From positions 8,278-72,277 of IMG/VR virus record IMGVR_UViG_3300035661_000053: a stretch of DNA of 64,000 bases. One strand, given 5' to 3'. Source of the stretch: a virus. The notes below the pieces were generated by a model that worked only from the letters and a program-made list of their open reading frames with translations, made no database searches and was not told the DNA's origin. Positions within the stretch are counted from its first letter, which is position 1, and the number at the start of each line of letters is the position of its first letter. Made by a program: the position numbers and the translations under genes. Of this stretch, positions 4,401 to 27,802 are shown piece by piece.

Positions 4401-7155
4401 CATTACTGAGTTTCTTTAAAGCATCCGTGTCCAAAGCTGCTGTGGACAAAGTCTTTGCTGAAAGTTTAGCCCTTTTATCCTCGAGGTCTTCAAGTACTTT
4501 TACCTCGGCATCATAAAGAGCTTTTCTTTCTTTAATAGACTGAATGTATTCTCCATCGACCTTTTGGCCTTTATCCCCGGATAGTGCAGCAGCTTGCCGC
4601 CTGTCACGTTCCATTGTCATAGCAATATCACGAGCGTACTCAAGTTGCTTTACCTGCTTCTCAGTTAATTCTGCTTCTTCCTTGTAGTAGTCTATTCTCT
4701 GTTTTATAGCATCGGCTGTTGAGGCTCGCGCTTTTTCTGCTGACTCCTCAGCCTTCTTATCACTCTCTTCCCAGAAGCTCTTCACAGCACTATACACCGT
4801 GAGAACACCCGTGAGCAGAGCGAGCGGGGAAGAAAGAAACATTGCCTTGAGATCAGCCATAAGAGCCTTACCAAAAGACAGCAACCCGTTAAAAGCAGAC
4901 TGCGCGATAGCAGATAAGGATATTTCTTTTGTCTGCATCATAACAGCCGTGGTAATTTCCTCTTGTTGCGCCTTTATTTTATTCAAAACAAGACTCCGTT
5001 GTTCCTCAACGAACGAGGCTTCAACTTCTTTTGCCGCCTGTTCAGCAACAAGAGACCTTATGCTGCCCTCCCGGTTTGCCCGTTCAGCCAATTGATCGTC
5101 ATACTTCCGAAGATTCTTTGCGCCTTTTTCTGTCATCAATGCAGTGGCCTCCCAGCTAAGCGTTCCACGCTCATTTAATGCCTGCGCCTCAGTCATCATC
5201 TCAATTTCTTCAGCAATCTGTCGCAGTTTTGAAATTCGTAATTCAATACCCGCTGCCTCAGTAGCATTACCTTCTTCTAAAAGAATTTCTCTCTCTGTGT
5301 CTAAAGCAAGAATGTCAACCTCAATAGACTTGACAAATTCTTTCTTTACCGCCTTGCCTATTTCAGCATCAACAATTTGTTCCTGCAATGCAAACTCAGA
5401 CATAAGCGCCGCGTTGCCTCTTATACGTTCAGTAGCCTCCTGCGTGGCAAGTATAAGCTTTTCCTGCATGGCACGAATTTCAGCCTGAGTTGTTCCGACT
5501 TGCTGTTCGCCATCAACTAAAAGTATTTTCTGTCGCTCGACGATCATATTCTGAATAGCCCTTGCTTTTTGGTACAAGGTATTCTTACTTTGTAAAATAG
5601 CAAGGTGTTCCTTGTCAATAAAAAGTTGCTCTTTCATTGTTGTTGGTTTAAGAGTTTCCGCGATATTCTTTTTTATTTGATCGCGAATTTCTGTGGCTTC
5701 TTGTAGTTCTTTTTGAAGTTCTTTTCTCGTCTCTTCATTAGGCTTAAACACGTTTCTTGACAAGAGCCCATTACCACCTATGACATCGTTTTTGAATTGC
5801 GCGTTTGCCACGGCTTTATTCGCGGTAATAAGCAGCTGTCTTTGCCGAATAATCTCATCCACATTATCAGGATTCACACCCGGGATGCCACTATTCATCA
5901 TACCTGCACGAGTTGGTGTTTGACGACCCATGACACCATACATATCTCGTTTTGCCATGCTCTCGATTCTGCTGGACATGTTCGTGGCTTCTTTATTCAA
6001 AATGCCCATAGCTTTAGCATGCTGCATAATTTGAGCAGAGGCAATACCATGCGACTCAGCCCAATTGTCAATTGTATTTTTCATTAGCCTGTTTGACAAA
6101 GCTTTACCCGCGGTGAGCATTAGAAAAGCATTAAGAGAATTCATCATCAAAGAAATAGAATTGTTGACGCCACCAAAAACAGCGGACACCCCTGTGAATA
6201 AAGTTTTAATGGGGCTTAGCATATGGGACACAAAATTGAGGGAAGTCTCAGAGGTGTGCTTTATCGTGTCAGCAATTTCAATAATTTCTTTCTTATGCTG
6301 CTGAACGTAATTGGTCGTCTCGATCAAGAATTTCTTTACTTCAGGCATGTAGGTATCACCAACACCCGCCATAACCTGCTGCATGATGTCCCGAAGGTTC
6401 TGCATGCGTCCCTGGTAGGTTTCCATCTGCTTATCCATCATCCCCGCGAAACCTTTTTTCTCGATTATTCGAGGAAGCGCATCAAGCAAGTCCTCAATAG
6501 AGGCATCAATTTCCCGTCCCCCTTTTTTAGTCTTAACATGTAGCTCATCCATGAAATCTTGGTAAGTCACTAGAAGCGTTCTGAACATTCTGAGGGCAAT
6601 ACCCTTCCTTCCTACCGCTAAAGCCTGAAAAGCAGCCAGAGCCTCCTCCATTGGCTTTCCAGAAGCAGCAGCAAGGTCACCCAGAGACCTCAAGGTATCC
6701 AACGAGTACCTACCAACAGCCTGAAGCTGATTTCCTGCCTCAATAACCTGTGTAACCGAGAAAGGAGTGACCGCAGCGAACTTAACCATTTCCTCAAACC
6801 GTTCCCTCGCGAGTTCAGTGTCCTTGAGCATTACACCAAGAGTTGTCCGGTATTTTTCAAACAGCCCGGAATCATCAAGAGGTGCAGAGATCACGGCCTT
6901 AATTTGTGTTACCATGTACAGGATACGCTCAAAGGCAATAATGTTAAGAGACCAACCCCTGATATTTGTCTTTATCTCATTTATAAATTTGTTTATTTCA
7001 GTGAGATCAGCCTTTGTCTGCGGGGGGACAACCATATCACGAAGGGCTGAAGCAGAAGTTTGTTTGAGTTCTGTTATTCCGGATTTTATTCTCGTGAAGG
7101 CTTGCTCAATATCCTTAATATCAGCAATGAAACGGACTCCATCCTGTACGGGCAT
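1495..7155 (-). CDS. Tail tape measure protein
   Basis: 1886 aa, helical/coiled-coil. N-terminal tape-measure motif (FAAVTPFSVTQVIEAG...SLGDLAAASG), C-terminal PPKFAEGG...LSDNEFIVNA. Follows the tail chaperone gene. Confidence 0.92.
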   Translation of the reverse strand: MPVQDGVRFIADIKDIEQAFTRIKSGITELKQTSASALRDMVVPPQTKADLTEINKFINEIKTNIRGWSLNIIAFERILYMVTQIKAVISAPLDDSGLFEKYRTTLGVMLKDTELARERFEEMVKFAAVTPFSVTQVIEAGNQLQAVGRYSLDTLRSLGDLAAASGKPMEEALAAFQALAVGRKGIALRMFRTLLVTYQDFMDELHVKTKKGGREIDASIEDLLDALPRIIEKKGFAGMMDKQMETYQGRMQNLRDIMQQVMAGVGDTYMPEVKKFLIETTNYVQQHKKEIIEIADTIKHTSETSLNFVSHMLSPIKTLFTGVSAVFGGVNNSISLMMNSLNAFLMLTAGKALSNRLMKNTIDNWAESHGIASAQIMQHAKAMGILNKEATNMSSRIESMAKRDMYGVMGRQTPTRAGMMNSGIPGVNPDNVDEIIRQRQLLITANKAVANAQFKNDVIGGNGLLSRNVFKPNEETRKELQKELQEATEIRDQIKKNIAETLKPTTMKEQLFIDKEHLAILQSKNTLYQKARAIQNMIVERQKILLVDGEQQVGTTQAEIRAMQEKLILATQEATERIRGNAALMSEFALQEQIVDAEIGKAVKKEFVKSIEVDILALDTEREILLEEGNATEAAGIELRISKLRQIAEEIEMMTEAQALNERGTLSWEATALMTEKGAKNLRKYDDQLAERANREGSIRSLVAEQAAKEVEASFVEEQRSLVLNKIKAQQEEITTAVMMQTKEISLSAIAQSAFNGLLSFGKALMADLKAMFLSSPLALLTGVLTVYSAVKSFWEESDKKAEESAEKARASTADAIKQRIDYYKEEAELTEKQVKQLEYARDIAMTMERDRRQAAALSGDKGQKVDGEYIQSIKERKALYDAEVKVLEDLEDKRAKLSAKTLSTAALDTDALKKLSNEISNQRVKVNDLADSYNAAITAKSALIEKTNVLKRLFPDLAAQIDNVGISSSNTSGLLFIINERMAALKQTAIDLRTQMSGLAIDLAIEDVRSYAKSKANKDAIGESKRSYGIFESNSNLSHKLDNIIKPQQEINAEIIKNIDAIPVDATPEQVTNQITAIATSLRKRIDNENSKGIISLFKQFLGGVYSTKEGKLDEDKYKEAIKSAFGVDFVDISSLGDFEKTDYVQDIIDRYNKDLAQVTMLESKRIAVNNALVNSVKIAEKPTVPNDEDKVPKDKYNDDPLTKELKEFKLQASIMTEQYNHLASTLMEMSASMASLGNSDQLIKRLTAPQTEIEKTFKEGVQDYSKKVLEKIAELKKFKARALANTNRDFGFRQANEIDQMLKQAEAENFKLQMLPYDNMVNRMKEDLSAAEIRFYSAGTPEEKATEQKTMIEMQNKYREAKEDHTARIRQLIDEGRKNGFSFVQIEVLYDMLTKDLKENAATQKKTSDLEAEITNLSGSADSIMKAYESLEDKKEKLRERILSNYATTPEQKAKELENLKNTSQAGINKLFTVEEQKAADIEAEVNIDRLSKLVESMGEDSQDYKHLFNATEKIEAEKSLIRAQYDKKIADIRAKQEEEEASIADILKKRKDYEKGNSGVPLSPEETKRANLYDRNTAARNAQIIALSKDKDKETDKVDKKSMLSKFNTTKDFLDRITSAFNTYFEWKKQKITDEVETWKKAQEVILTNEENSAMRFATTENQKERVRQQFEIRKQQLDKEAEQRKHAALKKDWEISHALAMAQIVTNTAIGVMSALAMLPPNIPLSIIIGATGATELAIAASQTPPKFAEGGLNVNGKGISYLPKGLFRGVGGEKDDKNLVLLSDNEFIVNAQQTKKHLPLLQAINDGFANGGLFGGGIKTDLYAMNFSANTSALHSELKDMNKNLTKHLENPVRPILIIDKYTAGEIAGIGIQEMKRGAGL

Positions 7156-11988: not shown

Positions 11989-13026
11989 TTAACTTTTAGA
12001 AGGAACCTTCGCCATATTTAGCACTTCAGATACAGGATTCACTACCTCTGCCGCGGGCAATTGCTGAACAGCCACCGGGGCCAGGGCAGACCGTCCTTGC
12101 AGGAGATCACCAAATAAAGTGGCAAGAATACCCGTGCCTTTTGACCCGGTAGCTTTTATCTCGATAGATTGCGTGTTGTCTGAATTTAGATTTTCAACAT
12201 TAAACATAAGCTGGGATAGTACACTTATCTCGTTTGTTAAATTCTTGTCAAGAACGCCACCATCAATTTTCTCATTCAGGACTGCACGCATAACACGCTC
12301 CTTTTGGATATTAACAAGAACACGCATACCAGTTTTAGTATCACTAAAATCAGTATCCAGCGAAAAATTAAAAACGCAAGATTGATTCACCACAAATTTA
12401 GGGCACCGTCCAGCAAGATAGCAAGTGTTGCAAACAATGAGGTCATCCTGTAATAACGGGTTGGCTTCTATCTTCCGCACCTCGATCGTCTGGGAACCTC
12501 CTTGACTTTTAAGCTCACGGGTAAGCATGTTGAAACAATGATTGTAGAATTGCTTCTTTGTCACGCATAAACCACAGTCACGGGGACAGTCTGTGCCATT
12601 TTTTTCATGCGTTGTGAATAGCCATTGTCTTGCTTCTTCATTTGAAGGAGAAAGGAAGAAAGATTGTATTTCACCTTCTGTCTGTATCTGATAGAATTCT
12701 ACTGGATTCACAACGAGTTTATCAACCTTCTTTTGTATGACAGTATCCTTCTTCCCCTCGTTACAAGAATGACAGAGCGTCTCCAAATTCGTGAGGTCAT
12801 TTGTCCCTCCAGCTGAAAGCGGCACAATGTGATCTATTACCAATTCTACCGTGGGATCAGTTTTTGGAGATGCACCGCAGCGTTTACAACGATGCTGATC
12901 TCTTTCAAGAATCTCGAACCTTAACTTGTGAGTTATCTCATTACGAAGCTTTTTCTTCTCCTTCGTGGTTAATTTCTTGCTGTCTTCTTCTGCTTGCTTC
13001 TTTTTCTGCTCTTTAAGTGTTGCCAT
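11989..13026 (-). CDS. HNH endonuclease fused to a Cys-rich domain and a helical C-terminal domain
   Basis: CKRCG...DHIVPLSAGGTNDLTNLETLCHSCN is an HNH motif. Extra CPRDCGLC and CNTC-x5-C-x8-C clusters follow. Start probably MATLKE at 13026 (ORF track gives 13074). Confidence 0.75.
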   Translation of the reverse strand: MATLKEQKKKQAEEDSKKLTTKEKKKLRNEITHKLRFEILERDQHRCKRCGASPKTDPTVELVIDHIVPLSAGGTNDLTNLETLCHSCNEGKKDTVIQKKVDKLVVNPVEFYQIQTEGEIQSFFLSPSNEEARQWLFTTHEKNGTDCPRDCGLCVTKKQFYNHCFNMLTRELKSQGGSQTIEVRKIEANPLLQDDLIVCNTCYLAGRCPKFVVNQSCVFNFSLDTDFSDTKTGMRVLVNIQKERVMRAVLNEKIDGGVLDKNLTNEISVLSQLMFNVENLNSDNTQSIEIKATGSKGTGILATLFGDLLQGRSALAPVAVQQLPAAEVVNPVSEVLNMAKVPSKS

Positions 13027-14005
13027 TTTCTTCTTTCTTTTTCTTTCGTCTACCACGTCGGCCTTTCGGCGCAACCTTTGGTGCTACACCGTGCATTACT
13101 TCAAGCTCATTTGGTGTACACATGTAAAAAGGATTCGTTTTAATGAAATCGCGTTCTGCTTCAGTGAGCCACCATTGTCTATTCAGTGTTCTCCTGTTAA
13201 AATTTTTCTCATTCATAAGCCAAGCATTGATATTGAATTTATTCACCTGCCGAGTATTATCATCCATGAATTTGCCAAAGTCAACACCCCATTTATGGCA
13301 GGTACGAAATTGCTGTCTACGAATAGCTTCCTTCTTCGTGTAATCAATCGTCTCAAAGAAACTCCCATTCCAGACATATGTGATGCCATATTTACCACCA
13401 CTAAAATACGTGGTTGAATCAGCACTAAACAAGGGAAATTTATCAAATGACACGAAGTTTGTCATAGCGAACCCATGAACCAATTTCCTGTACCTGTAGG
13501 AGAGATTGTATACTTGCTCAAAGTATCCAGTATCAGTTTTTGAATTGATACCACCTGATGCACCTATAAAGTTATAACGATCAAAGTATTCGTAAAGATT
13601 CTTGTATGGTAGGCTATAATCGTGAGTGACATAGCAGACTCGCTGACCTTCTTTCTCCAATTGCTCAAATTCTTTATTCCAATCATAGACCTGTTTGTCC
13701 CCCACAAGCAGGTTAACATCATAGTTAGCGACCCAAAAGAGTCTCCCAATATACTTGGATGCGAAATTGAGATAGTCTGAAAGATATTTGACATGGTTAA
13801 TTTTCTCGTGATTATCTTGTGCTTTTGAGAACATGGTGAAAGCCCCAGAATCAAGAACAACGAGAGGAAACATATCGAGAACTTCGTCAAAGGGAACACC
13901 CTTGTCAATAATATAGTAATAGGACATCAGGACTTTCTTGACTCCCGCGCTATAGCAATCATTCCTGATCTGCCTGTCTTCCACACCCGCGAATATTAAT
14001 TCCAT
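13013..14005 (-). CDS. DpdA/TGT-like deazaguanine transglycosylase
   Basis: LDSGAFT, NYDV, VTH, VHGFAMT and SADSTTY motifs of phage TGT-fold proteins, within a que gene cluster; basic C-terminal tail. Confidence 0.75.
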   Translation of the reverse strand: MELIFAGVEDRQIRNDCYSAGVKKVLMSYYYIIDKGVPFDEVLDMFPLVVLDSGAFTMFSKAQDNHEKINHVKYLSDYLNFASKYIGRLFWVANYDVNLLVGDKQVYDWNKEFEQLEKEGQRVCYVTHDYSLPYKNLYEYFDRYNFIGASGGINSKTDTGYFEQVYNLSYRYRKLVHGFAMTNFVSFDKFPLFSADSTTYFSGGKYGITYVWNGSFFETIDYTKKEAIRRQQFRTCHKWGVDFGKFMDDNTRQVNKFNINAWLMNEKNFNRRTLNRQWWLTEAERDFIKTNPFYMCTPNELEVMHGVAPKVAPKGRRGRRKKKKEENGNT

Positions 14006-14009
14006 TTTC

Positions 14010-14984
14010 TCACCCGTGACAATCCATAGGATTTATAAGACGTTCGTACACATTTTTTGCTGAGAAATGATTCACCACCATTTCCAAACTAAGAAAGCCT
14101 GCCTCATCAGTCCTTTGAGCTTTATAAAGATCAGCTTGAAGAATATCCGAGTACAGGAAATTCCGTGGAAACAGATCATGATAAGAACCAACATCTCGGC
14201 ATAAAGGGATAGTCCCTGTTGCGACAGCATCCATAACGGAAAGGCCAAAGGACTCACAAAAGGCTGTGCTCACGATAATCTCGCAAGTGGATGCAAGCTT
14301 CTGGTATTCCTCCGAAGTAAGTCCCACGTGTAACTCCATATTAGGATGTTCCTTTGCTAGAGTTTCCGCCACGGATAAGGGTATTCGTCTCGTGCAAACA
14401 TGAAATTCAAAATCAGGAAATTCACGCATTAGTTTTTGAAAATCAGGAAATCCTTTTACAGGATTGTTAATATCATTTCCTGCCCAAATAACCGTCTTGC
14501 TTCTTTTAATAGAGGCATTCTGAAAAGGAAGCAAGGGGCAACCAATAGACCTATATTGTGATTCATGCAAACCATAAGATAAAGCTGTTGAAGAAGTTGA
14601 CACGAGCATCGGTGTACAAAGAGAATTTTGCTTATAGTACGCTGGAGCGTGCACATAATCTTGATAATCCTTTGACACGTGCACGTATATCTCAAAAGGA
14701 ATTTCCCTATCAAGACCAATCATTTGTTGGAAGGGCAATTGCATAGAATCCAAGAAAATTATTTTCTCGATGTTCTCATGCCCGATCATTTCTACTTTCC
14801 CACGCAATTCAAGCATTGATTTATAACCATAATAAGCAAGGTTTTCAAACAACGTTGAGTTGCTCAAAACGGAGATAGGCTCCCCATAAAAAAGGACACG
14901 ATTATCCGCGACAGCCTCAAGACGTTCCTGAAAATCCTTGCTCCAAGAATCAGCAGTCTTATGCAACCTGTTTATTAAAATCAT
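14010..14984 (-). CDS. GT-B (GT4-like) glycosyltransferase
   Basis: KGFPDF and STAFCESFGLSVMDAVATGTIPL (E-x7-D/E nucleotide-sugar motif). Confidence 0.8.
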   Translation of the reverse strand: MILINRLHKTADSWSKDFQERLEAVADNRVLFYGEPISVLSNSTLFENLAYYGYKSMLELRGKVEMIGHENIEKIIFLDSMQLPFQQMIGLDREIPFEIYVHVSKDYQDYVHAPAYYKQNSLCTPMLVSTSSTALSYGLHESQYRSIGCPLLPFQNASIKRSKTVIWAGNDINNPVKGFPDFQKLMREFPDFEFHVCTRRIPLSVAETLAKEHPNMELHVGLTSEEYQKLASTCEIIVSTAFCESFGLSVMDAVATGTIPLCRDVGSYHDLFPRNFLYSDILQADLYKAQRTDEAGFLSLEMVVNHFSAKNVYERLINPMDCHG

Positions 14985-15118
14985 TCAGCCACCTCACCCA
15001 CCCCGGCATTTGGCTCCAGGTACTCTAAAGTAACATGGGGGTCACCATTGGAAGAACCACGTGCACGTATGAATTTTATCCTTTTACCTTCAAGTTTATC
15101 TTCTTTTTTCTCGTCCAT
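14981..15118 (-). CDS. Small hypothetical protein
   Basis: MDEKKEDKLEGKRIKF..., fills the gap between QueC and the glycosyltransferase with an ATGA overlap. Confidence 0.4.
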   Translation of the reverse strand: MDEKKEDKLEGKRIKFIRARGSSNGDPHVTLEYLEPNAGVGEVAE

Positions 15119-15863
15119 GCGTAATTTCTTTCGTAATAAATAGTCGTGTTTTCTTAGCAATAGCATCCTTTATGCGGTGCTGTCTTTTCTCGCTATACTT
15201 ATTTAGGTTCTCCAAGTAAGTACGCGCCGTGGTTGACTCAGCAGGATTCACCGCGAAATTTCCTGTAATATCATTGTTTGCCAGAGCAACAAATTTTCGA
15301 AAGCAAGCCGGGCAATTACCACATTCAATAAAACCCGAGTTACTACGAACCGGGCTATAGCAAGAATGTGTACTCACGAGCGAAGCTATGCCAGACTTGC
15401 CATAATTTTCAATGTACCAATGAACCATGTCTGTTTTGTCCATGTGCACGAAAGGAGACTCCACGATGATATTTTTCCCGGACAGACTTGTAAGAAGCGT
15501 GCTCATGTTCATCATAAATTCTTGTGTCCTGTCAGGGATACTCATTTCATCCTCCTGAACAATAAGAGCAATCATGTAGCTGTTTGCTGCCGGGTATTCA
15601 CGAAGTGCCATACTCGTTGCAACATGGCAAAGATAAGAATTCCGAAGGGGGATTTCAGCGTCATTTTTTTCGAATGCCCCAATGTGCATGCCCGGGGCAT
15701 AATGTATTTTTCCTACATGATTTGTCCTCATAATGGACTTCATCTCAGCTTCCTGGTACCTATGCCCAAGAGGAACGTATACCCGCATATCGGGTTTCAA
15801 GTAAGCAGAAGCAATAAAGGAGTCAAGACCACCACTATACAGTAGGACTTTCTTTGGCTTCAT
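15096..15863 (-). CDS. queC: 7-cyano-7-deazaguanine synthase
   Basis: YSGGLDS PP-loop, IPLRN, PDR, SPF...K, SCY...CGNCPAC Zn site. Start MKPKK at 15863 behind GGAAGGAGG. Confidence 0.9.
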   Translation of the reverse strand: MKPKKVLLYSGGLDSFIASAYLKPDMRVYVPLGHRYQEAEMKSIMRTNHVGKIHYAPGMHIGAFEKNDAEIPLRNSYLCHVATSMALREYPAANSYMIALIVQEDEMSIPDRTQEFMMNMSTLLTSLSGKNIIVESPFVHMDKTDMVHWYIENYGKSGIASLVSTHSCYSPVRSNSGFIECGNCPACFRKFVALANNDITGNFAVNPAESTTARTYLENLNKYSEKRQHRIKDAIAKKTRLFITKEITHGREKRR

Positions 15864-16623
15864 AATAATCACTAACCTCCTTCCGCATACCTTTCCAATG
15901 CTCGTTAAAAAAAGGCTCATAGCAACCTATATGCCACGCGGTCGCCTGACCCAATTGCACCCGTTTATCCTCCGGTATACTCAAGAATAATTCCGTGTCA
16001 TAACCACGTTCACCTTTTTTATAGGCTATGAATGACTCGTAGAGAGCTAAAAAGCAATCTCTTTTTATAATATACGTACCCGAGACACCATACGCCGGAC
16101 CAACATGATCAAAACGAACCTTGCCATACATCTTAAGTGGAATGTCCTTCCTCAAAATAATGTCGGTACCATCGGGGTTTGAAAAAACCTTGTCCGTGTA
16201 ATCCGGGAAGCCACGTGCATTCTCGACATCAACCGTGGATATGACTATCATATCAGGGGTACATTTTTTGTCACTATCCAATTTTTCCATTGCTTCGACT
16301 ATTTTCTGAAAGTCATTTTGAGCGATCAAAACATCGTCATCAAGCACGAGAAAAACGTCATACCCCTCGTGCGACAGAGCCCATCGTGCTTTCGCCGCGG
16401 GCATGGAGACATCATGAGAAACAAGGTGCACGTCAATAAGGTGTTTGTTTCGTTTAGCAATTGCGAATTCCGTTTTGAAGAATTTCGCGAAATCCATCGA
16501 GTACGTGAGAATTTCCCACTCTATACTTATGCTCGTCGTGTTCAACAAGAGATTCGTCATAACCTTTGAGAACATGGCAAAGCGATCCTCCCGAACCATC
16601 GTTAAAATTTTAGCTGTTTGCAT
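15835..16623 (-). CDS. GT-A (GT2-like) glycosyltransferase
   Basis: AKAR...YDVFLVLDDDVLI DxD motif, GYDTEL and late WH motifs. Confidence 0.65.
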   Translation of the reverse strand: MQTAKILTMVREDRFAMFSKVMTNLLLNTTSISIEWEILTYSMDFAKFFKTEFAIAKRNKHLIDVHLVSHDVSMPAAKARWALSHEGYDVFLVLDDDVLIAQNDFQKIVEAMEKLDSDKKCTPDMIVISTVDVENARGFPDYTDKVFSNPDGTDIILRKDIPLKMYGKVRFDHVGPAYGVSGTYIIKRDCFLALYESFIAYKKGERGYDTELFLSIPEDKRVQLGQATAWHIGCYEPFFNEHWKGMRKEVSDYYEAKESPTV

Positions 16624-17654
16624 GTATTAATTTTCCTTAAAAATTCCAGTAAAGCAGGTTTATCAGAATAATGCTGAAGGAGTGATGCTTCAACACTTGC
16701 CCCGTCTTCTTCCCTCGTTACTTCCTTGTACATTTTTCTGTCAAAACCATGCAATTTTTTATTCGCGCCCATCAAGTAAAGAGTATCACATTTGAAGCAG
16801 TGATAGCAAAAATCCATGAAGTCTTCACTATTACAATGAGCGAAGTCTACCTTCATCTTCTTGAGGGTCTCCAGAATAGTCAAAGAATCCATGTGACTTA
16901 TTGGAGAAGCAACATGCTTACCCGCGTGGGAAAGAGAATTATAATAAGCTTTCATATCAAAGCCTTGAACAAGAATTAGATTATCCCAAACCTCCTTTTC
17001 ATAGCCAACAAGAATATTTTGTCCGTTATAAAAAATAGGATACGCAAATTCAACGAGCACTTCTTTATAATATCTGTCATCCCCAAGAGCCCTTCTAAGT
17101 AATGAAAACATACTCCCCTCTATAACAAAGTCACTCCTTCTTCTATCAGTTACCCCGAAAAACTCCGCGTACATAACTCTTATGCTTTCTGGTACGTTTG
17201 AATTGAGGTAAGAAATCATGGTGCTATCCTTACCACCAGAATACATTACCAAAAAAGGATAGACACTTTTTGTAGAGTCCTCAATGTTCAAACCATGATA
17301 AGAGACCTCCTTAAAAATTATTTTTTTATCCCGATTTTGTAATATTTCCAAATAGCTAATAACAACAGAAAACATTCTTTTATTCAGAAAATAAGGAACC
17401 TCAATCTCTGCCTCATCATAAACGTAAAGGCAATACAGTAGAACATAATTGAGTTTATTCAAAAAAGGAGAGGTCTTGTGGTAAATAGCCTCTATTGATT
17501 TGAAGCCATCCTCATGCGAAACTATAACACGAGTCAACTCTGGATTAGAGCCGAAGTCCAAGCGTACGTGCTTCAAAGTTTTATCCGAAATTATGTAACA
17601 AATATTAGTGTAATATACTGTTTTTATTTTATACAAAAAATACTCTTTGGGCAT
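16602..17654 (-). CDS. Second QueC-family PP-loop ATPase with N-terminal extension
   Basis: MYSGGKDS PP-loop preceded by about 130 extra residues; SPI motif; C-x8-C-x2-C-x2-C (CNSEDFMDFCYHCFKC) QueC-type Zn site. Start uncertain: 17654 likely because 17693 lies upstream of a terminator. Confidence 0.7.
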   Translation of the reverse strand: MPKEYFLYKIKTVYYTNICYIISDKTLKHVRLDFGSNPELTRVIVSHEDGFKSIEAIYHKTSPFLNKLNYVLLYCLYVYDEAEIEVPYFLNKRMFSVVISYLEILQNRDKKIIFKEVSYHGLNIEDSTKSVYPFLVMYSGGKDSTMISYLNSNVPESIRVMYAEFFGVTDRRRSDFVIEGSMFSLLRRALGDDRYYKEVLVEFAYPIFYNGQNILVGYEKEVWDNLILVQGFDMKAYYNSLSHAGKHVASPISHMDSLTILETLKKMKVDFAHCNSEDFMDFCYHCFKCDTLYLMGANKKLHGFDRKMYKEVTREEDGASVEASLLQHYSDKPALLEFLRKINTCKQLKF

Positions 17655-17655
17655 T

Positions 17656-17681
17656 AAAAAACCCGCCATAACAGCGGGTTT
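17656..17681 (-). terminator. Intrinsic terminator after the basic peptide gene
   Basis: AAACCCGC-TGTTATG-GCGGGTTT-TTT on the minus strand. Confidence 0.7.
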
Positions 17682-17710
17682 GAGAAGAAGCATAGGAAAT
17701 TTTGGGAGGC

Positions 17711-17842
17711 TTATTTGCCGCGTGCCCTTTTACCTACTTTAGGATTGGACTTGCTATTTACTTTGCCGCCCCGTGCCGGAGTGGCTTTGCCTTTCGCGGC
17801 AATCATCTTTCCTGCCGGTTTGCCTTTCGCGGAGTTACCCAT
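17711..17842 (-). CDS. 43-aa Lys/Gly/Ala-rich basic peptide (histone-tail-like)
   Basis: Too short for the ORF track: MGNSAKGKPAGKMIAAKGKATPARGGKVNSKSNPKVGKRARGK. GAAAGG Shine-Dalgarno upstream, terminator downstream, GC-rich relative to its flanks. Confidence 0.75.
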   Translation of the reverse strand: MGNSAKGKPAGKMIAAKGKATPARGGKVNSKSNPKVGKRARGK

Positions 17843-17905
17843 TTTCGTGACCTTTCATGTTAGAGATTAAGTTATTTTTTGCACTGCACAAAATTACCAT
17901 GAACG

Positions 17906-18661
17906 TTACTTTAAATCAAGTGTTTTGTGCATCTGAGTGGATAATCGAACATTTGGAAAATCTTCAAGAAACAACAATAATTTATTTATCAATGTTTTAT
18001 CTTTCTGAAAAACGTAGTAATCGGGTTGTATAAAGATTAGAGTATTCAATTTGAAGCCTTTACAAGTTGCAAAAATATTTCGCAAATCCCTTAAATCAGC
18101 ATCAGTACCAACAACGAATTTCAATTGCACATTAAAAGTCATATCAGGAGATAACCAAAATTCTACAACCTCCTTCGCGCGAGCAAGAGATGCATCTATT
18201 TTAGCCGAACCTTTTGTAGCTGAAGAAAGCTTTGGTGATACAGAAAAGAAAACATTATCATTAAGCATATCGAATAAAACTTTCCTGTCCGGGAAGGGAT
18301 ACCCGGAGGTCTCAACAGAAATATAATCATAGCCATTCTTATGAAGCTTGCCAATCAGCCAATGTACTGATTCTGCTTGTTCCATAGGTTCACCCCCAGT
18401 TATGCAAATCCAAGCGTTCTTATTCCAGCCCTCAACTATTCTTTTGTAAACATCAGCACAGAGCACTTTGAATTTTTTATTTTGTCTCCAAGAATTTTTA
18501 GTGTCACACCAAGCACAACCAACAGTGCAACCATTCGTTCTGACAAACCTTGTCAAGAAACCACTTAAGAGACCTTCACCTTGTATAGAATCAAAAATTT
18601 CTTGCACATACAGCGAAGCAATATTGCTATTAATCCCACTACGTCTCCTTTTCACGATCAT
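17906..18661 (-). CDS. queE: 7-carboxy-7-deazaguanine synthase (radical SAM)
   Basis: EIFDSIQGEG, FVRTNGCTVGCAWCDT (CxxxCxxC), ITGGEP, ETSG, SPK, STQMHK. Confidence 0.95.
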   Translation of the reverse strand: MIVKRRRSGINSNIASLYVQEIFDSIQGEGLLSGFLTRFVRTNGCTVGCAWCDTKNSWRQNKKFKVLCADVYKRIVEGWNKNAWICITGGEPMEQAESVHWLIGKLHKNGYDYISVETSGYPFPDRKVLFDMLNDNVFFSVSPKLSSATKGSAKIDASLARAKEVVEFWLSPDMTFNVQLKFVVGTDADLRDLRNIFATCKGFKLNTLIFIQPDYYVFQKDKTLINKLLLFLEDFPNVRLSTQMHKTLDLK

Positions 18662-18676
18662 CCTGGTATCTACATT

Positions 18677-19234
18677 TTATTGAAAAAATTGTTTGTTACT
18701 TTGTAAAAGATTAAGAGCCTCCGCCTTATCAATGTCACCAAGCATACAAGATGTTGTCGTGACACTCCCGATACTTTTAACACCCCGTATTGTCATGCAA
18801 AGATGCTCCGCTGAACACACCACGAAAATACCTTTTGGCTGAAGGCGTTTCATTATGTCTTCTGCTATATCCGCGGTAAGGTTCTCTTGCACCTGTGGTT
18901 TAGCAGAGTGGTATCCTATTATTCTCGCGATTTTGGAAAGACCTACAATGGTGCGATTACTGCAATGATATACAACACCAACCTTGCCAAAAAAGGGCAA
19001 CAAATGATGCGCGCAATAAGAAGTGAAATTTATATTCGATACTGCCACATACCCATCCTTACCCTCGAACGTGGTTATCTTGGGTGGGTTCTTATACAGC
19101 CCGGAGAAAAGCTCCAGGTACATTTTAGCAACCCTTTTTGGTGTGTCTTTCGTGTGCCCGTCAACAGGTAATTGAAGCCAAGCAAGCAGATCACCAATTA
19201 TTTTCTCCCCTTCAGCTATATTTGGCTTTTTCAT
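18677..19234 (-). CDS. folE: GTP cyclohydrolase I
   Basis: DTPKRVAKMY, SYCAHHLLPFFG, GLSKIAR, QVQENLT, AEHLCMTIRGV. Confidence 0.95.
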   Translation of the reverse strand: MKKPNIAEGEKIIGDLLAWLQLPVDGHTKDTPKRVAKMYLELFSGLYKNPPKITTFEGKDGYVAVSNINFTSYCAHHLLPFFGKVGVVYHCSNRTIVGLSKIARIIGYHSAKPQVQENLTADIAEDIMKRLQPKGIFVVCSAEHLCMTIRGVKSIGSVTTTSCMLGDIDKAEALNLLQSNKQFFQ

Positions 19235-19236
19235 TT

Positions 19237-19494
19237 TTAATCCAAGAAGCTGAAGCTTGCTTTGTTATGGTCATTAATAATAAAAGTATGATCTTTTGAA
19301 ATTCTCGACGGTATACGGCTATTGAAGAACTTGAAAGTGTTTGTAGCCTTATCATAACTTATGAGTTTACTGTTATGTAAATTATAGAAATTATAAGTGC
19401 CACCTACCTTCATTTCCCGTCCATGAATAGAAGCCGTTGTTTGGAAGCTTTCCTTTTGCTTTCCTGATGAGCGATTCGCCCTTGAGCCACCCAT
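19237..19494 (-). CDS. 85-aa protein with MGGSR N-terminal tail
   Basis: Start MGGSRANRSSGKQ at 19494, 1 nt after the DUF4417-like stop, with an AAGGA Shine-Dalgarno (ORF track start 19563 overlaps the upstream gene). Confidence 0.7.
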   Translation of the reverse strand: MGGSRANRSSGKQKESFQTTASIHGREMKVGGTYNFYNLHNSKLISYDKATNTFKFFNSRIPSRISKDHTFIINDHNKASFSFLD

Positions 19495-19495
19495 G

Positions 19496-20581
19496 TTATT
19501 TGATTCCTTTCTTTGCCAATTCTTTTCTAAAATTAGCGGCGTTTTCCATAAAGATGTCATCACTCAAATAAAATTGATCTGTCGAGTATCTACTTTCCTT
19601 CACGCCCCAGATCAAACGGCGGGAGGATATAACAGGTATATAAGAGTTCATGTACAAGGCGTTCTTGTCAATCGCGTGATACTGCACGATACGACTAACT
19701 GTAGAGGCACCAACGACAATTATCTTAACACTGGGGTTCAGCAAAGACCTGATCAGCTTGAATTGTTTCACCGCGTAATCATGGTAAACTTCTTGACGTG
19801 CCATTTGAATTGGAAAATAGACATGGGAAAAACCCGTCTTGTTAATCCAATTCGCGAAAGCTTTTGCATCACTCTCCCAAAGATACAAAAAACAAGGTAT
19901 TGTTGGGAAACCATTATCAACCAAATCCTTGATAAACTTATAACTAAGGAGCCTATTCTGAACAGTTGAGCAAGCAGGTTGATTAAAGAAAAAGCTTACC
20001 GTGGGAGACATAACATATTCAAATCCCTTCTCCCTAAAAGGCTTTGTCCAATCCCTTTGCAAGTACGCGTAAGTAGGGCTTGCAATGTTCATACCCTCGT
20101 TATTATAGACACCAAGATACTGCTCATTACTTTGAAAGACTTCTTTGCCGAATAACCAACTAAGCAAAGATTTATCATCATCTGACATGAGCAACCCTAA
20201 AGAGCATTGACGTGACTTTGCAAGATTCGTCAATCGTTTCTCCATACCCATTGAAAGCTTTGACAAAGGAAAGGTGAGTACTTTTTCGTGCGCGTCAATT
20301 TTCTGGTGGGTCACGAAAGATACCTTTGGAAAGTCCACGGGTATTTCTGCAAGCTTGCCTAACCGGGGTGCACGATACTTTTCAATGTCAGGGAACATGG
20401 TTGCTATCGCGTAAGGGTTATCAGGAAAGAATTGTTTCGCATCCGCATGCTCGAAAGGTGCTTTAACAACAACTGTTTTTTCACAGTGCTTCTTATAATT
20501 GCAAGTAGAGCAATAAAAGTTCTCATCCTCAAGAGAAAAGTATTTTTCAGGAGAAATGATCATTTTTCTATCTTTAGCCAT
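19496..20581 (-). CDS. DUF4417-like protein with N-terminal Cys cluster
   Basis: YVMSPTVSFFFNQP...QNRLLSY...NGFPTIP resembles the DUF4417 PDFS...P...N...G..VIP pattern; CSTCNYKKHC at the N-terminus; followed by an MGG- gene as is typical. Confidence 0.6.
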   Translation of the reverse strand: MAKDRKMIISPEKYFSLEDENFYCSTCNYKKHCEKTVVVKAPFEHADAKQFFPDNPYAIATMFPDIEKYRAPRLGKLAEIPVDFPKVSFVTHQKIDAHEKVLTFPLSKLSMGMEKRLTNLAKSRQCSLGLLMSDDDKSLLSWLFGKEVFQSNEQYLGVYNNEGMNIASPTYAYLQRDWTKPFREKGFEYVMSPTVSFFFNQPACSTVQNRLLSYKFIKDLVDNGFPTIPCFLYLWESDAKAFANWINKTGFSHVYFPIQMARQEVYHDYAVKQFKLIRSLLNPSVKIIVVGASTVSRIVQYHAIDKNALYMNSYIPVISSRRLIWGVKESRYSTDQFYLSDDIFMENAANFRKELAKKGIK

Positions 20582-20595
20582 AAAAGTTCCTTAGA

Positions 20596-21033
20596 TTATT
20601 CTTCATAACGTGCGCTACTCGTGGGAGTCTCGCACCATTCTACAAATTTTACTTTCGCAAAGCCATTGAATTTTTCTTTCAAAATTTGAAAACATAGCTT
20701 AGCAAGATTCTCCGCAGTGGGTGTTTCCTCAACACGCAAGATATTCTGAAAGACACCCGCGTGAGATAAAAGCATATTCAATCTTTCATCATCCTTGCAC
20801 AAAATTAATTTATGATCAAATGTTTCCTCGATACTCTCCTTCAGGAAAGCTTTCACGGTGCCATAATCAAGAACCATACCCTCCATAGCTGTGCCTTTCA
20901 TAATAGGTGAGGGTGTGCCTTCCAGGGCTATCGTGATACGAGCAGTATGACCATGTATACCCCTGCATCTACCATTATGCAGATGCAGAGCATGGCCATA
21001 GTCAACGGTTATCGTTTTCGTTATCGTTGTCAT
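20596..21033 (-). CDS. queD: 6-carboxy-tetrahydropterin synthase
   Basis: GH...CRGIHGH, LDYG, FDH, PTAENLA, ETPTS. Confidence 0.95.
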   Translation of the reverse strand: MTTITKTITVDYGHALHLHNGRCRGIHGHTARITIALEGTPSPIMKGTAMEGMVLDYGTVKAFLKESIEETFDHKLILCKDDERLNMLLSHAGVFQNILRVEETPTAENLAKLCFQILKEKFNGFAKVKFVEWCETPTSSARYEE

Positions 21034-26148: not shown

Positions 26149-26471
26149 ATCTTGTGAATTAAACCTTTTGCATGAGGAAAGTTTAAGAGTAGTATAGGAA
26201 TCTTACCAACACGTATAGCATCCTGCTCTAACTTAACAAGCATATCAACGGTTATAGTTATTGAATTCGTGGTGAGAGCAGATTTAATATCCATAACCTG
26301 ATCGCCTTTTATCATATCGCCTTTAAGGAAAGGAGTTGAACCTGAATTAGGTGTCTGTTTCGCGCCTAGCTTTTTTGCAATAATTTTCTCTTGCTTATTT
26401 GCCTGCTTTTTAATGCTATCCCTATCGGATAGACTGAAGAGTTTTTTTTCTTTTTTTGGTGTGGGTATCAT
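26127..26471 (-). CDS. PD-(D/E)XK Holliday-junction-resolvase-like nuclease
   Basis: QEKIIAK...PNSGS...KGD...DIK; ATGA overlap with the recA stop. Confidence 0.65.
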   Translation of the reverse strand: MIPTPKKEKKLFSLSDRDSIKKQANKQEKIIAKKLGAKQTPNSGSTPFLKGDMIKGDQVMDIKSALTTNSITITVDMLVKLEQDAIRVGKIPILLLNFPHAKGLIHKMWSLQTI

Positions 26472-27769
26472 GTTGCCGCCTGTTCTACTTTTGTAAAGCA
26501 TTGTTCCATCAGGGCAGCTGCCAAATCAGGGCGCTCGTCAAGAGCCTTTGCAAATTTGTCTGCACCCTGAAAACGATCATTCTTGTAAGTATACCACGCT
26601 CCCGCCTGCTTCACAATGCCAAGCTCAACGGAGACGTGCACAACGCTTAAGTTATTTACGATGTCATCCTTCAATATAGAATAGAAGAACTTTCCATATT
26701 GCCACGGCTTCCCGGTTTTGTTTTTAAGAATAGTGAAATTTATCCAGATACCCTCGATGAGTCTTTTCTCCTGACTTATCCAAACCTTTTCTCCGGCAGT
26801 GAAATCTATCGTGGTTGAGGAACCATACTTAAGACCACCACCCCCACCCATAACACGAGAGTCACCATATGCGCCGATTTTCTCGCGCCATTGCTGAATG
26901 ACAACAAGGATAGGCTCCGCCTGCTTCCGCACCTCAACCATCTTACCCTCCTTATCACGATACACGAAATCAAACCTACTATTAAGACGAGAAGTAAGCA
27001 CACGAACAATCTTGTTCCATATGCGTGCCTGCAAACCTTGCTGGTAATCCTCAAGAGACTTTTCAGATTCCTCCTTACCACCTATTGCATCCACCGAATC
27101 AACACCAACGAAAGTAACTCGCCCGGTGTTAAGAGCCTCACGCATGACATCACCAACCTGCTGACTGTGTTCAGGATTAAACAAAACTACATTGTTATGC
27201 ACGACACCGAATTTAGTCGCCCATTCTCTTGTATAGTTATGTTCAGAATCGACAAGAAAAAATAAGGAATAAGACGGCTCACTACAATGTGAACATTCAA
27301 TGTCATACTCGAGAGCATAAAAAGGCTTCTTGTGGTGGAATTTTTGATTGGGGCAATAGATGTTCTTCTTCTGGTGATTAGCGTAGTACTTCTTGGAGAT
27401 GACAGTCGCGGGGTCAACAACAACCTTCTTGAAATTCTTCTCCGTAATATGCCCCTCAAGGCAGGTGCCACAGATTCTTTGAGCTATTCCAGCGCCTATG
27501 TACATTGTTGTGGATTTTGTACTGCTCGCGGCTCCTACCAAAATATGCCAACGACCCCTCGTGTACCCACCTATCTTTATATCAATGGCAAAAATCCCCG
27601 TTCGAGACTTGACCATTTTAATGTCAGAGCCCACGCGTATAACCTCATCCTTGTAGGCGAGATTAACCGTATTCATGAGTCTGTTTTTAACATCCTCCGT
27701 GGTTTCTGTCTTTAATTCGTCTTTCTTTCCCGCCGTTGCGGGTTTTTTGCCTTCTATCTTCTTCGCCAT
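26468..27769 (-). CDS. recA: RecA/UvsX-like recombinase with Cys-rich insertion
   Basis: TGIFAIDIKIGG, Walker A GAASSTKST, DSEH, VDSV, QARIW, QWREKIG, GGGGLKY, KNK, GAWY...FQG. Confidence 0.9.
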   Translation of the reverse strand: MAKKIEGKKPATAGKKDELKTETTEDVKNRLMNTVNLAYKDEVIRVGSDIKMVKSRTGIFAIDIKIGGYTRGRWHILVGAASSTKSTTMYIGAGIAQRICGTCLEGHITEKNFKKVVVDPATVISKKYYANHQKKNIYCPNQKFHHKKPFYALEYDIECSHCSEPSYSLFFLVDSEHNYTREWATKFGVVHNNVVLFNPEHSQQVGDVMREALNTGRVTFVGVDSVDAIGGKEESEKSLEDYQQGLQARIWNKIVRVLTSRLNSRFDFVYRDKEGKMVEVRKQAEPILVVIQQWREKIGAYGDSRVMGGGGGLKYGSSTTIDFTAGEKVWISQEKRLIEGIWINFTILKNKTGKPWQYGKFFYSILKDDIVNNLSVVHVSVELGIVKQAGAWYTYKNDRFQGADKFAKALDERPDLAAALMEQCFTKVEQAAT

Positions 27770-27802
27770 GATTTTCTTCACTTATAAGTTAATAAAAAGA
27801 CA

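Follow-up and report, generated by a model that had tools for sequence, protein, structure and literature searches.

The stretch of DNA analysed here (the window) comprises 64,000 nucleotides and corresponds to bases 8278-72277 of the 72,277-base IMG/VR virus record IMGVR_UViG_3300035661_000053, which is estimated to be 74% complete. Nearly all of its long open reading frames (ORFs) lie on the minus strand, and no tRNA genes were found in the window. An earlier, sequence-only reading of this DNA had described a 7-deazaguanine gene cluster with FolE, QueD, QueE, QueC, a second QueC-like protein (here QueC-2), DpdA, a DUF4417-like protein and small ORFs beginning with Met-Gly. This inventory was correct: all of these genes were located, every named ORF on the minus strand and at the coordinates that had been given for it. 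The 8-kb cluster span had no megablast match among the GenBank phages. In order of transcription the locus carries QueD, the DUF4417-like gene, an 85-amino-acid protein starting MGGSR, FolE, QueE, a 43-codon ORF starting MGNS, a hairpin, QueC-2, a GT-A-like gene, a divergent QueC, a 61-amino-acid ORF, a GT-B glycosyltransferase, the DpdA barrel and an HNH/Cys-rich ORF. The genes of the pathway itself, with identities to their counterparts in L003 (a 26-kb IMG/VR contig estimated to represent 29% of its genome), are the following:

20596-21033, minus strand: QueD (6-carboxytetrahydropterin synthase); PF01242, E 7.8e-27; TIGR03367, E 1e-19; 29% identity to the L003 QueD.
18677-19234, minus strand: FolE (GTP cyclohydrolase I); PF01227, E 4.9e-52; 59% identity to the L003 FolE.
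17906-18661, minus strand: QueE (radical-SAM CDG synthase); TIGR04322, E 1.3e-24; PF13353 (Fer4_12) and PF04055 (Radical_SAM); 43% identity to the L003 QueE.
16602-17654, minus strand: QueC-2, a PP-loop ATPase whose zinc site is of the QueC type and whose N-terminus carries an additional domain of about 125 amino acids, as judged from motifs, 12 homologues and an AlphaFold2 (AF2) model.
15096-15920, minus strand: divergent QueC; PF06508, 60.3 bits (cut-off 22); phrog_1550, E 2.1e-19; PADLOC QueC, E 3.3e-12.
14010-14984, minus strand: GT-B (GT1/GT4-like) glycosyltransferase; NF053513, E 3.6e-9; phrog_2170, E 1.2e-7; PF00534, E 1.9e-4 (under its cut-off).
13013-14005, minus strand: barrel part of DpdA; phrog_887 positions 10-305, E 3.7e-27; 47% identity to the L003 DpdA and 31% to that of phage BS162P1.
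11989-13026, minus strand: HNH domain and Cys-rich C-terminal domain of DpdA in a separate ORF; HNH PHROGs (E down to 1.8e-21) and the C part of phrog_887.

By their family matches, FolE, QueD and QueE together make 7-carboxy-7-deazaguanine (CDG). Note that TIGR04322 and the other NCBIfam QueE models that matched QueE all did so under their cut-offs. A FolE-QueD-QueE-QueC-DpdA set places dPreQ0 in phage DNA by post-replicative base exchange, as reported in the available parts of Hutinet 2019 (PMC6884629) and Cui 2023 (PMC10516641), and the window shares these five functions with the phage 7-deazaguanine systems described there. The QueC at 15096-15920, whose likely start is Met20 (position 15863), had been called canonical, a description that did not hold: it scored 44.9 bits against the TIGR00364 equivalog, whose cut-off is 150.3, and shares 28% identity with QueC from Bacteroides phage BS162P1. 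It keeps SGGLDS and IPLRN, carries IPD instead of YPDC and Y-x-E-x-E instead of YxQxHxxE, and its zinc site reads C-x13-C-x2-C-x2-C. Judged by sequence, this protein can probably convert CDG to the amide or the nitrile. Since its motifs vary, and since the Y131A change inactivates E. coli QueC (in the part of Libby 2026, PMC13329287, available to us), its product may be other than preQ0.

DpdA, the predicted base-exchange enzyme, is encoded in two ORFs. The sequence-only reading had placed a DpdA/TGT-like protein at 13013-14005; phrog_887 supports the identity, and the extent had to be revised because DpdA continues into the second ORF, down to position 11989. In the search, which took the HNH/Cys-rich ORF as 11989-13074, phrog_887 positions 352-481 match its residues 201-331 (E 8.1e-18). 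The same two-ORF arrangement was observed in the window (11989-14005), in L003 (13706-15692) and in the locus L001 (10025-11657), with ORF overlaps of 14-62 nt, the overlap in the window being 14 nt. The two parts are likewise separate ORFs in Bacteroides phage BS162P1, and both stand under a single annotated gene in phages BCD7 and BRock. The HNH/Cys-rich ORF is 40% identical over 360 amino acids, HNH included, to its counterpart in L003 (14553-15692). Since it has been kept at this identity, the HNH domain would be a long-standing part of DpdA and not a recent homing insertion. A programmed frameshift fusing the two ORFs was considered and rejected, as an in-frame ATG lies within the overlap in both phages and the ORFs are separate in BS162P1; two polypeptides is the simpler reading. 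Searched by tblastn, DpdA retrieved genes annotated as queuine tRNA-ribosyltransferase or dpdA-like in BCD7, BRock, GiJojo and the RHEph phages. By their family matches, the barrel ORF and the HNH/Cys-rich ORF together are the DNA base-exchange enzyme, related to the DpdA proteins of Bacteroides phage BS162P1, Bacillus phage BCD7 and Streptomyces phage BRock. Compared with the known phage dpd clusters, the window has a split DpdA, an extra QueC-like family and glycosyltransferase-like genes.

The extra QueC-like protein, QueC-2, is 350 amino acids long. No match to it was found in PHROGs, NCBIfam (TIGR00364 included), PADLOC or the PDB sequences, nor to NF041925 or the PADLOC QatC model, and against Pfam at E <=10 it gave no PF06508 match and nothing except DUF7411 at E 0.08. 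Neither tblastn against the GenBank phages nor the IMG/VR scan found a relative, and a word-indexed protein search returned QueC-2 only. A HMMER pass over 1.84 billion representative proteins yielded 14 proteins, which were QueC-2 itself, one false match and 12 homologues of 297-336 amino acids, all metagenomic and none of them named. P0015, a hyalin-like animal protein, was rejected as a homologue. IMG/VR scans with the homologues P0003 and P0005, a metagenome scan with P0008 and a genome scan with P0012 gave no match.

In the alignment of the 13 family members (A1), the SGGKDS loop is kept, with G141, D143 and S144 invariant and S139 and K142 near-invariant, and the cysteines of C274-x8-C283-x2-C286-x2-C289 are invariant or near-invariant. 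The family also has conserved residues of its own: N181, E202, P206, G217, E219, K220 and W223 (EK-x2-W). The hallmarks of QueC are SGGxDS and C(x)8CxxCxxC, and its catalytic signature consists of YxQxHxxE, VPxRN and YPDC (Libby 2026, in the part available). QueC-2 has both hallmarks and not the signature, none of whose three motifs is among the conserved columns of the alignment. The AF2 model built on the 13 sequences (pLDDT 65, pTM 0.70) shows a PP-loop core at residues 127-335, which aligned with many PP-loop enzymes at Z 8-10, among them 3k32 (Z 9.8), Cap9 (9nto_B, Z 9.1, 150 residues aligned) and B. subtilis QueC (3bl5, Z 8.9, 160 residues aligned). In a Foldseek search of the PDB, no entry reached E <=0.001, and hhalign of QueC-2 against three phage QueCs reached a probability of 79% over 33 columns only. 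QueC-2 sides with QueC by sequence motif; as modelled, its fold is that of a PP-loop enzyme, and the tied structural rows do not carry an assignment to a subfamily. We infer that it represents an unnamed PP-loop family with the ATP loop and the zinc site of QueC and a rebuilt pocket.

Several of these results weigh against a QueC-like role for QueC-2. PF06508 touches just 2 of the 13 family members, at E 0.089 or worse; the structural matches also include ThiI, LarE and TilS, in rows tied with those of QueC; and in the Atlas structure search the top entry was a MurL cluster, with the same TM as long QueC clusters (0.62 each). Since no QueC model matches, the PP-loop rows are tied and MurL comes first in Atlas, QueC-2 could act on a substrate other than CDG.

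The one QueC-2 relative that was read in its genomic context is P0012, carried by L003. L003 and the window are syntenic over at least 14 genes, including five genes 5' of QueD that match in the same order. The L003 cluster runs QueD, FolE, QueE, the QueC-2 homologue, a 113-amino-acid gene, two glycosyltransferase-like genes related to the GT-B gene of the window, a methyltransferase, the DpdA barrel and the HNH/DpdA C-terminal ORF. The QueC-2 homologue directly follows QueE, and its start overlaps the QueE stop. In the 26 kb of L003 there is no PF06508 match at E <=1 and no match to the DUF4417-like protein, the 85-amino-acid protein or the 43-codon ORF. Compared with L003, the window has in addition the DUF4417-like and MGGSR pair, the 43-codon ORF with its hairpin, and the GT-A-like gene with the divergent QueC. 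Since L003 keeps QueC-2 without a Pfam-type QueC, a DUF4417-like gene or a small Gly-starting ORF, QueC-2 would be a core enzyme of the pathway there and not a peptide-specific addition. This runs counter to the proposal of the sequence-only reading that QueC-2 is specifically paired with Met-Gly peptides. These two genomes hint that the DUF4417 pair, if it co-varies with any gene, does so with the divergent QueC and not with QueC-2. Note that the rest of the L003 genome could still encode a QueC, a DUF4417-like protein or a tagged protein, and that this contig is a single case, which tempers the argument. Another 11 IMG/VR loci, which contain distant relatives of DpdA, carry no QueC-2 or DUF4417-like gene and are uninformative about the neighbours of QueC-2.

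Our preferred reading, to which we assign a probability of roughly 55%, is that an uncultured tailed phage uses this locus to modify its DNA with 7-deazaguanine, that the cluster makes an undescribed derivative, and that a Gly-tag cassette (the DUF4417-like gene and its MGGSR neighbour) resides in it. QueC-2 would adenylate the carboxylate of CDG, either free or already in DNA, and couple it to some amine, though not to ammonia; a sugar would then be added to the QueC-2 product by the conserved GT-B glycosyltransferase or glycosyltransferases, and the phage DNA would carry a deazaguanine derivative so far undescribed. We lean slightly towards this scheme of CDG or a derivative as the substrate, an amine other than ammonia, a sugar added by the GT-B enzyme and a new base in the DNA.

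Another possibility could be that this is an ordinary dPreQ0/dADG cluster, in which QueC and DpdA do all of the DNA chemistry while QueC-2, the glycosyltransferase-like genes and the DUF4417 cassette are passengers, engaged for instance in tRNA or sugar amidation or in surface glycosylation. The minimal dPreQ0 gene set is indeed complete, the fold of QueC-2 fits the tRNA-modifying PP-loop enzymes as well as it fits QueC, the glycosyltransferase matches are weak, and DUF4417 cassettes exist without que genes. However, L003, whose DpdA is only 47% identical to that of the window, also has QueC-2 and glycosyltransferase genes located between QueE and DpdA; the L003 QueC-2 overlaps the QueE stop in a contig with no Pfam-type QueC; and the spacing of the QueC-2 zinc site is exactly that of QueC. 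With these observations on its two sides, a plain dPreQ0/dADG cluster seems to us rather unlikely.

A cluster making a new derivative, as we favour, would add to a known repertoire. Cui 2023 (PMC10516641) reports eight deazaguanine derivatives in DNA and helper enzymes, DpdL, DpdM and DpdN, which have other folds; in the part of that paper available to us we found no mention of glycosylation, of a QueC-like helper or of a second QueC. QueC-2 is an unnamed family that lies between QueE and DpdA, together with glycosyltransferase genes, in two divergent phages; in the 26 kb of one of them, L003, no ordinary QueC was found. The prediction is a DNA deazaguanine derivative beyond the eight of Cui 2023, possibly an amide or a sugar-bearing one. 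If it is true, the new base would matter for the evasion of restriction and for DNA-labelling enzymes. A likeness exists in secondary metabolism, where RoyL is described as a QueC homologue that makes CDG amides with amino acids, and where deazapurines are tailored by a glycosyltransferase and a methyltransferase (RoyL, HuiG and HuiC; 10.64898/2026.04.15.718813, available in part); L003 likewise has glycosyltransferase and methyltransferase genes beside QueC-2. RoyL, HuiG and HuiC belong to actinomycete small-molecule pathways without DpdA, and the likeness of RoyL to QueC-2 is one of description only.

The cassette that resides in the cluster consists of two genes:

19496-20581, minus strand: DUF4417-like protein, TGT-fold-like, 361 amino acids, long form with an N-terminal C-x2-C-x5-C; remote homology to PF14386 and Atlas.
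19237-19494, minus strand: 85-amino-acid protein starting MGGSRANRSSGK, candidate Gly-tagged partner; assigned by its position after the DUF4417-like gene.

The hhalign comparison of the DUF4417-like protein with nine PF14386 proteins gave a probability of 84% (E 7e-6, 161 columns), and BLASTP against one PF14386 protein (the L105 protein, 346 amino acids, 51 bits on PF14386) gave E 4e-6. In the alignment used for this family (A7), all three invariant columns are matched, by its residues P72, D134 and G224, as are all five near-invariant ones, by P193, S196, V227, P229 and W233. The Atlas search, which used an ESM model of low confidence (pLDDT 0.53), gave a feature score of 0.96, TM 0.66-0.71 to DUF4417 clusters and TM 0.55 over about 250 residues to TGT clusters. 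The DUF4417 nature of this second barrel protein, which the sequence-only reading had suggested, is borne out by these four lines of evidence, and the protein appears to be a distant member of DUF4417; the TGT-like fold, suggested there too, is made plausible by the Atlas alignment. Two results weigh on the other side: against Pfam at E <=10 the protein had no match, PF14386 included, and its single-sequence AF2 model (pLDDT 36) was too low in quality for a fold search. No relative was found by tblastn against the GenBank phages, in the IMG/VR scan or among the PDB sequences, and the word-indexed protein search returned only the protein itself.

Residues 17-40 of the DUF4417-like protein (C-S-T-C-x5-C) resemble residues 192-215 of the HNH/DpdA C-terminal ORF (C-N-T-C-x5-C; BLASTP E 0.01 over 99 residues). 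By sequence, a metal- or DNA-binding module shared by the DUF4417-like N-terminus and the DpdA C-terminal domain is possible.

The 85-amino-acid ORF is preceded by AAAGGAA and has its ATG 1 nt past the stop of the DUF4417-like gene; its position is that of the MGG(R)G proteins that follow DUF4417 in prophages. Glycine at position 2 is uncommon here, occurring in 2 of the 70 non-overlapping ATG ORFs of at least 60 amino acids on the minus strand of the window. No family match was found in Pfam, PHROGs or PADLOC. A complex prediction of the DUF4417-like protein (with alignment A7) and the 85-amino-acid protein scored 0.00, which counts neither way. The word-indexed search returned the 85-amino-acid protein alone, and its tag, MGGSR, differs from MGGRG; both speak against a tagged partner. 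On balance, we consider it probable that the two proteins form a functional pair of the Gly-tag type. The sequence-only reading had placed a small Met-Gly protein beside each of the extra enzymes: this is right for the 85-amino-acid protein, and it is not supported for the 43-codon ORF, which has no homologue and is missing from L003.

In support of such a pair, DUF4417 genes elsewhere are followed by Met-Gly proteins. A scan of 401 Bacillota genomes for PF14386 gave matches in 9, of which 8 passed the cut-off; 401 Pseudomonadota genomes gave none. Two of the nine Bacillota proteins are long Cys-rich forms like that of the window, and seven are strong matches of the standard form. An MG-starting ORF lies directly downstream in five of the seven strong prophage loci (MGGRG in three, MGGGY and MGTTY in one each); one of the remaining two has an MGGRG protein one gene further, and the other has none within 1.5 kb. 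The bodies of these six MG-starting proteins are diverse, with two matching phrog_9479, one Cys_rich_CPCC, one DUF3152 (weakly, below threshold) and two nothing. A DUF4417 relative occurs in 492 GenBank phage records, 385 of them from mycobacteriophages. In mycobacteriophage Adzzy (L107, 381-1945) the first gene, annotated as a nuclease, is DUF4417 and overlaps the second, annotated as a peptidase, whose product starts MGGRGTRGG followed by about 70 residues of Gly/Ser-rich linker. That DUF4417 genes precede Gly-starting proteins with unrelated bodies is thus confirmed (five of seven Bacillota loci, and Adzzy), and the pairing is real, far above chance. Note that in phiNJ2 and proPhi6, two of the three annotated phages inspected, the gene after DUF4417 has no MG start, which counts against our reading.

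Is the cassette tied to CDG? The complete genomes of Adzzy, phiNJ2 and proPhi6 carry DUF4417 and neither QueC nor QueD, and M. smegmatis, the host of Adzzy, is without a preQ0 pathway (Hutinet 2019, PMC6884629). Because these three phages lack que genes and this host the pathway, the DUF4417 cassette cannot depend on CDG in general. Among five Bacillota genomes with DUF4417, just one has a weak PP-loop match on the same contig, 10 kb away. The usual place of the cassette is before the terminase, without que genes. In another arrangement (L110; G147:C2 7357-13792, Bacillota), a long Cys-rich DUF4417 of 342 amino acids directly follows an Amidoligase_2/SWIM protein (475 amino acids) and an ATP-grasp protein (647 amino acids) and precedes an 84-amino-acid zinc-ribbon ORF starting MGRIARGQ, and then an N6_N4 DNA methylase; no que genes were found in the 19 kb read there. 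ParB-DUF4417 fusions also occur in phages. Within the literature available to us, we found no functional account of DUF4417 or of its pairing with Gly-starting proteins in print, and no account of MGGRG starts in phages.

The window shares with these phage and prophage cassettes a DUF4417-type gene followed by a Met-Gly-Gly start, the sole feature that the partners have in common. It differs from the usual cassette in having a long, Cys-rich enzyme without a PF14386 match, in its tag, MGGSR, and in the location of the pair inside a que operon with QueC-like enzymes. A TGT-like gene and an MGG-starting protein inside a CDG operon with QueC-like enzymes were not seen in any other DUF4417 locus read, and the window holds the only DUF4417/Gly-tag cassette known to this analysis that meets deazaguanine synthesis, with a QueC-like enzyme to spare. 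In our reading, the DUF4417-like and MGGSR genes would be a copy of a widespread phage cassette, inserted between queD and folE and encoding an enzyme or reader and its tagged client. In the window the cassette may depend on CDG, or it may have been inserted there by chance.

The sequence-only reading had joined the two halves of the locus in one scheme, in which CDG is joined by a QueC-like enzyme to Gly2 of the MGGSR protein, of the 43-residue peptide or of both, and the DUF4417-like protein either binds the modified tip or inserts it into DNA by base exchange at the free N9. Its parallel is type IV CBASS. As reported in the available part of Wassarman 2025 (bioRxiv 10.1101/2025.04.06.647259), the N-terminus of CdnD is M(G/S)G(G/S)GG; Cap9 places 7-amido-7-deazaguanine (NDG) on Gly2, with CDG as the donor; Cap10, of the TGT family, buries the modified CdnD tip and keeps the nucleophile Asp; and the authors raise the point that the free N9 of the tag could allow integration into nucleic acid. 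The long QueC relative QatC acts on the Gly N-terminus of QatB (Libby 2026, PMC13329287; for QatABCD, PMC13279940 and PMC13376578; all available in part). The background on Cap9, Cap10, CdnD and QatC/QatB from which that reading started thus agrees with what could be seen of Wassarman 2025 and Libby 2026. As in type IV CBASS, a QueC-like enzyme, a protein with a TGT fold (putative here) and a Met-Gly-Gly-Ser-starting protein are encoded together in the window, and the phage would make CDG itself. Unlike type IV CBASS, the window has no CD-NTase, effector or Cap11, its TGT-like protein is of the DUF4417 lineage, and the locus adjoins a DNA transglycosylase.

The comparison of QueC-2 with Cap9 and QatC fared poorly. 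QueC-2 matches no model of either, and with 350 amino acids and a rebuilt pocket it is unlike Cap9, which has about 185 amino acids and keeps the canonical motifs (Libby 2026, in the part available). QatC does keep SGGxDS and the zinc site and has lost YxQxHxxE, VPxRN and YPDC, the same pattern as in QueC-2 (same source). However, the zinc motif of QatC is C-x19-CGxCxxRR against the canonical spacing in QueC-2, and QueC-2 has no QatA or QatD neighbours.

What speaks for a stapled tag, besides the CBASS parallel, is that a TGT-like DUF4417 relative and an MGGS-starting protein lie inside a CDG operon, between queD and folE; that the window has one QueC-like enzyme more than dPreQ0 synthesis requires; that the DUF4417-Gly-tag pairing is real in other phages and prophages; and that the long-form DUF4417 of L110 stands next to two amide ligases and an MGR-starting ORF. 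On the other hand, L003 has QueC-2 without the tag protein, the peptide ORF or the DUF4417-like gene, Adzzy, phiNJ2 and proPhi6 have DUF4417 without QueC or QueD, the PP-loop match near DUF4417 in Bacillota is weak and confined to one genome in five, and the length of the 43-codon ORF means little (see below). Weighing both, we doubt that the DUF4417-like protein of the window handles a CDG-bearing tip, and peptide-to-DNA stapling, with the Gly tag deazaguanylated and carried into DNA, seems to us equally improbable. If the tag were deazaguanylated and exchanged into nucleic acid, a cargo protein would be covalently tethered to the phage DNA, and the locus would be the first genomic bridge between protein deazaguanylation of the NDG type and the DUF4417 system of hundreds of phages.

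A different use of the same gene would make the DUF4417-like protein a second DNA transglycosylase, inserting the product of QueC-2 while DpdA inserts that of QueC, with the 85-amino-acid protein an accessory or unrelated. This would fit its TGT-like fold in Atlas and the resemblance of its C-x2-C-x5-C to the Cys motif of the DpdA C-terminal domain. DpdA is reportedly paired with DpdB, a pairing that the ParB-DUF4417 fusions resemble. Nevertheless, L003 has QueC-2 without a DUF4417-like gene, DUF4417 is tied to Gly-tagged proteins and not to que genes, and the AF2 model (pLDDT 36) is too poor for the catalytic residues to be inspected; we find a second transglycosylase hard to credit.

The remaining features between QueE and the divergent QueC are the following:

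17711-17842, minus strand: putative 43-codon ORF starting MGNSAKGK; ORF with GAAAGG upstream.
17653-17681, minus strand: terminator-like hairpin and U run between the 43-codon ORF and QueC-2; 9-bp stem, -13.2 kcal/mol, z -1.99.
15835-16623, minus strand: 262-amino-acid, weakly GT-A-like protein (family 2 glycosyltransferase or nucleotidyltransferase); PF00535, E 0.0058; PF00483, E 0.092.

The 43-codon ORF is only a possible gene. Shuffles of its 251-nt gap gave an ORF at least as long in 449 of 5000 cases, which makes its length weak evidence, and it has no homologue and no family match in PHROGs, Pfam or PADLOC. A 14-nt direct repeat, CCGCGAAAGGCAAA, occurs twice inside it (window 17760-17830), each copy encoding AKGK; an intergenic repeat with a regulatory role would account for it just as well. 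The hairpin before QueC-2 (17659-17681) was absent from the results of the consensus terminator scan. For the GT-A-like protein, both Pfam matches are under the cut-off, a point against our reading; no PHROG or NCBIfam match was found, and L003 has no counterpart. A 61-amino-acid ORF (14981-15166) overlaps the end of the divergent QueC as well as the beginning of the GT-B gene, bridging the two.

Finally, outside the cluster, the internal MGGGGG of the ORF at 26468-27781 (MGGGRG in L003) was rejected as a tag, as these residues form the conserved glycine loop in a RecA-like protein. This protein of 437 amino acids (L003 2547-3881, 44% identity) has a Cys-rich insertion of about 90 amino acids (CGxC ... 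CS.C) after Walker A. An ORF of 1886 amino acids (1495-7155, minus strand) lies close to the structural genes.

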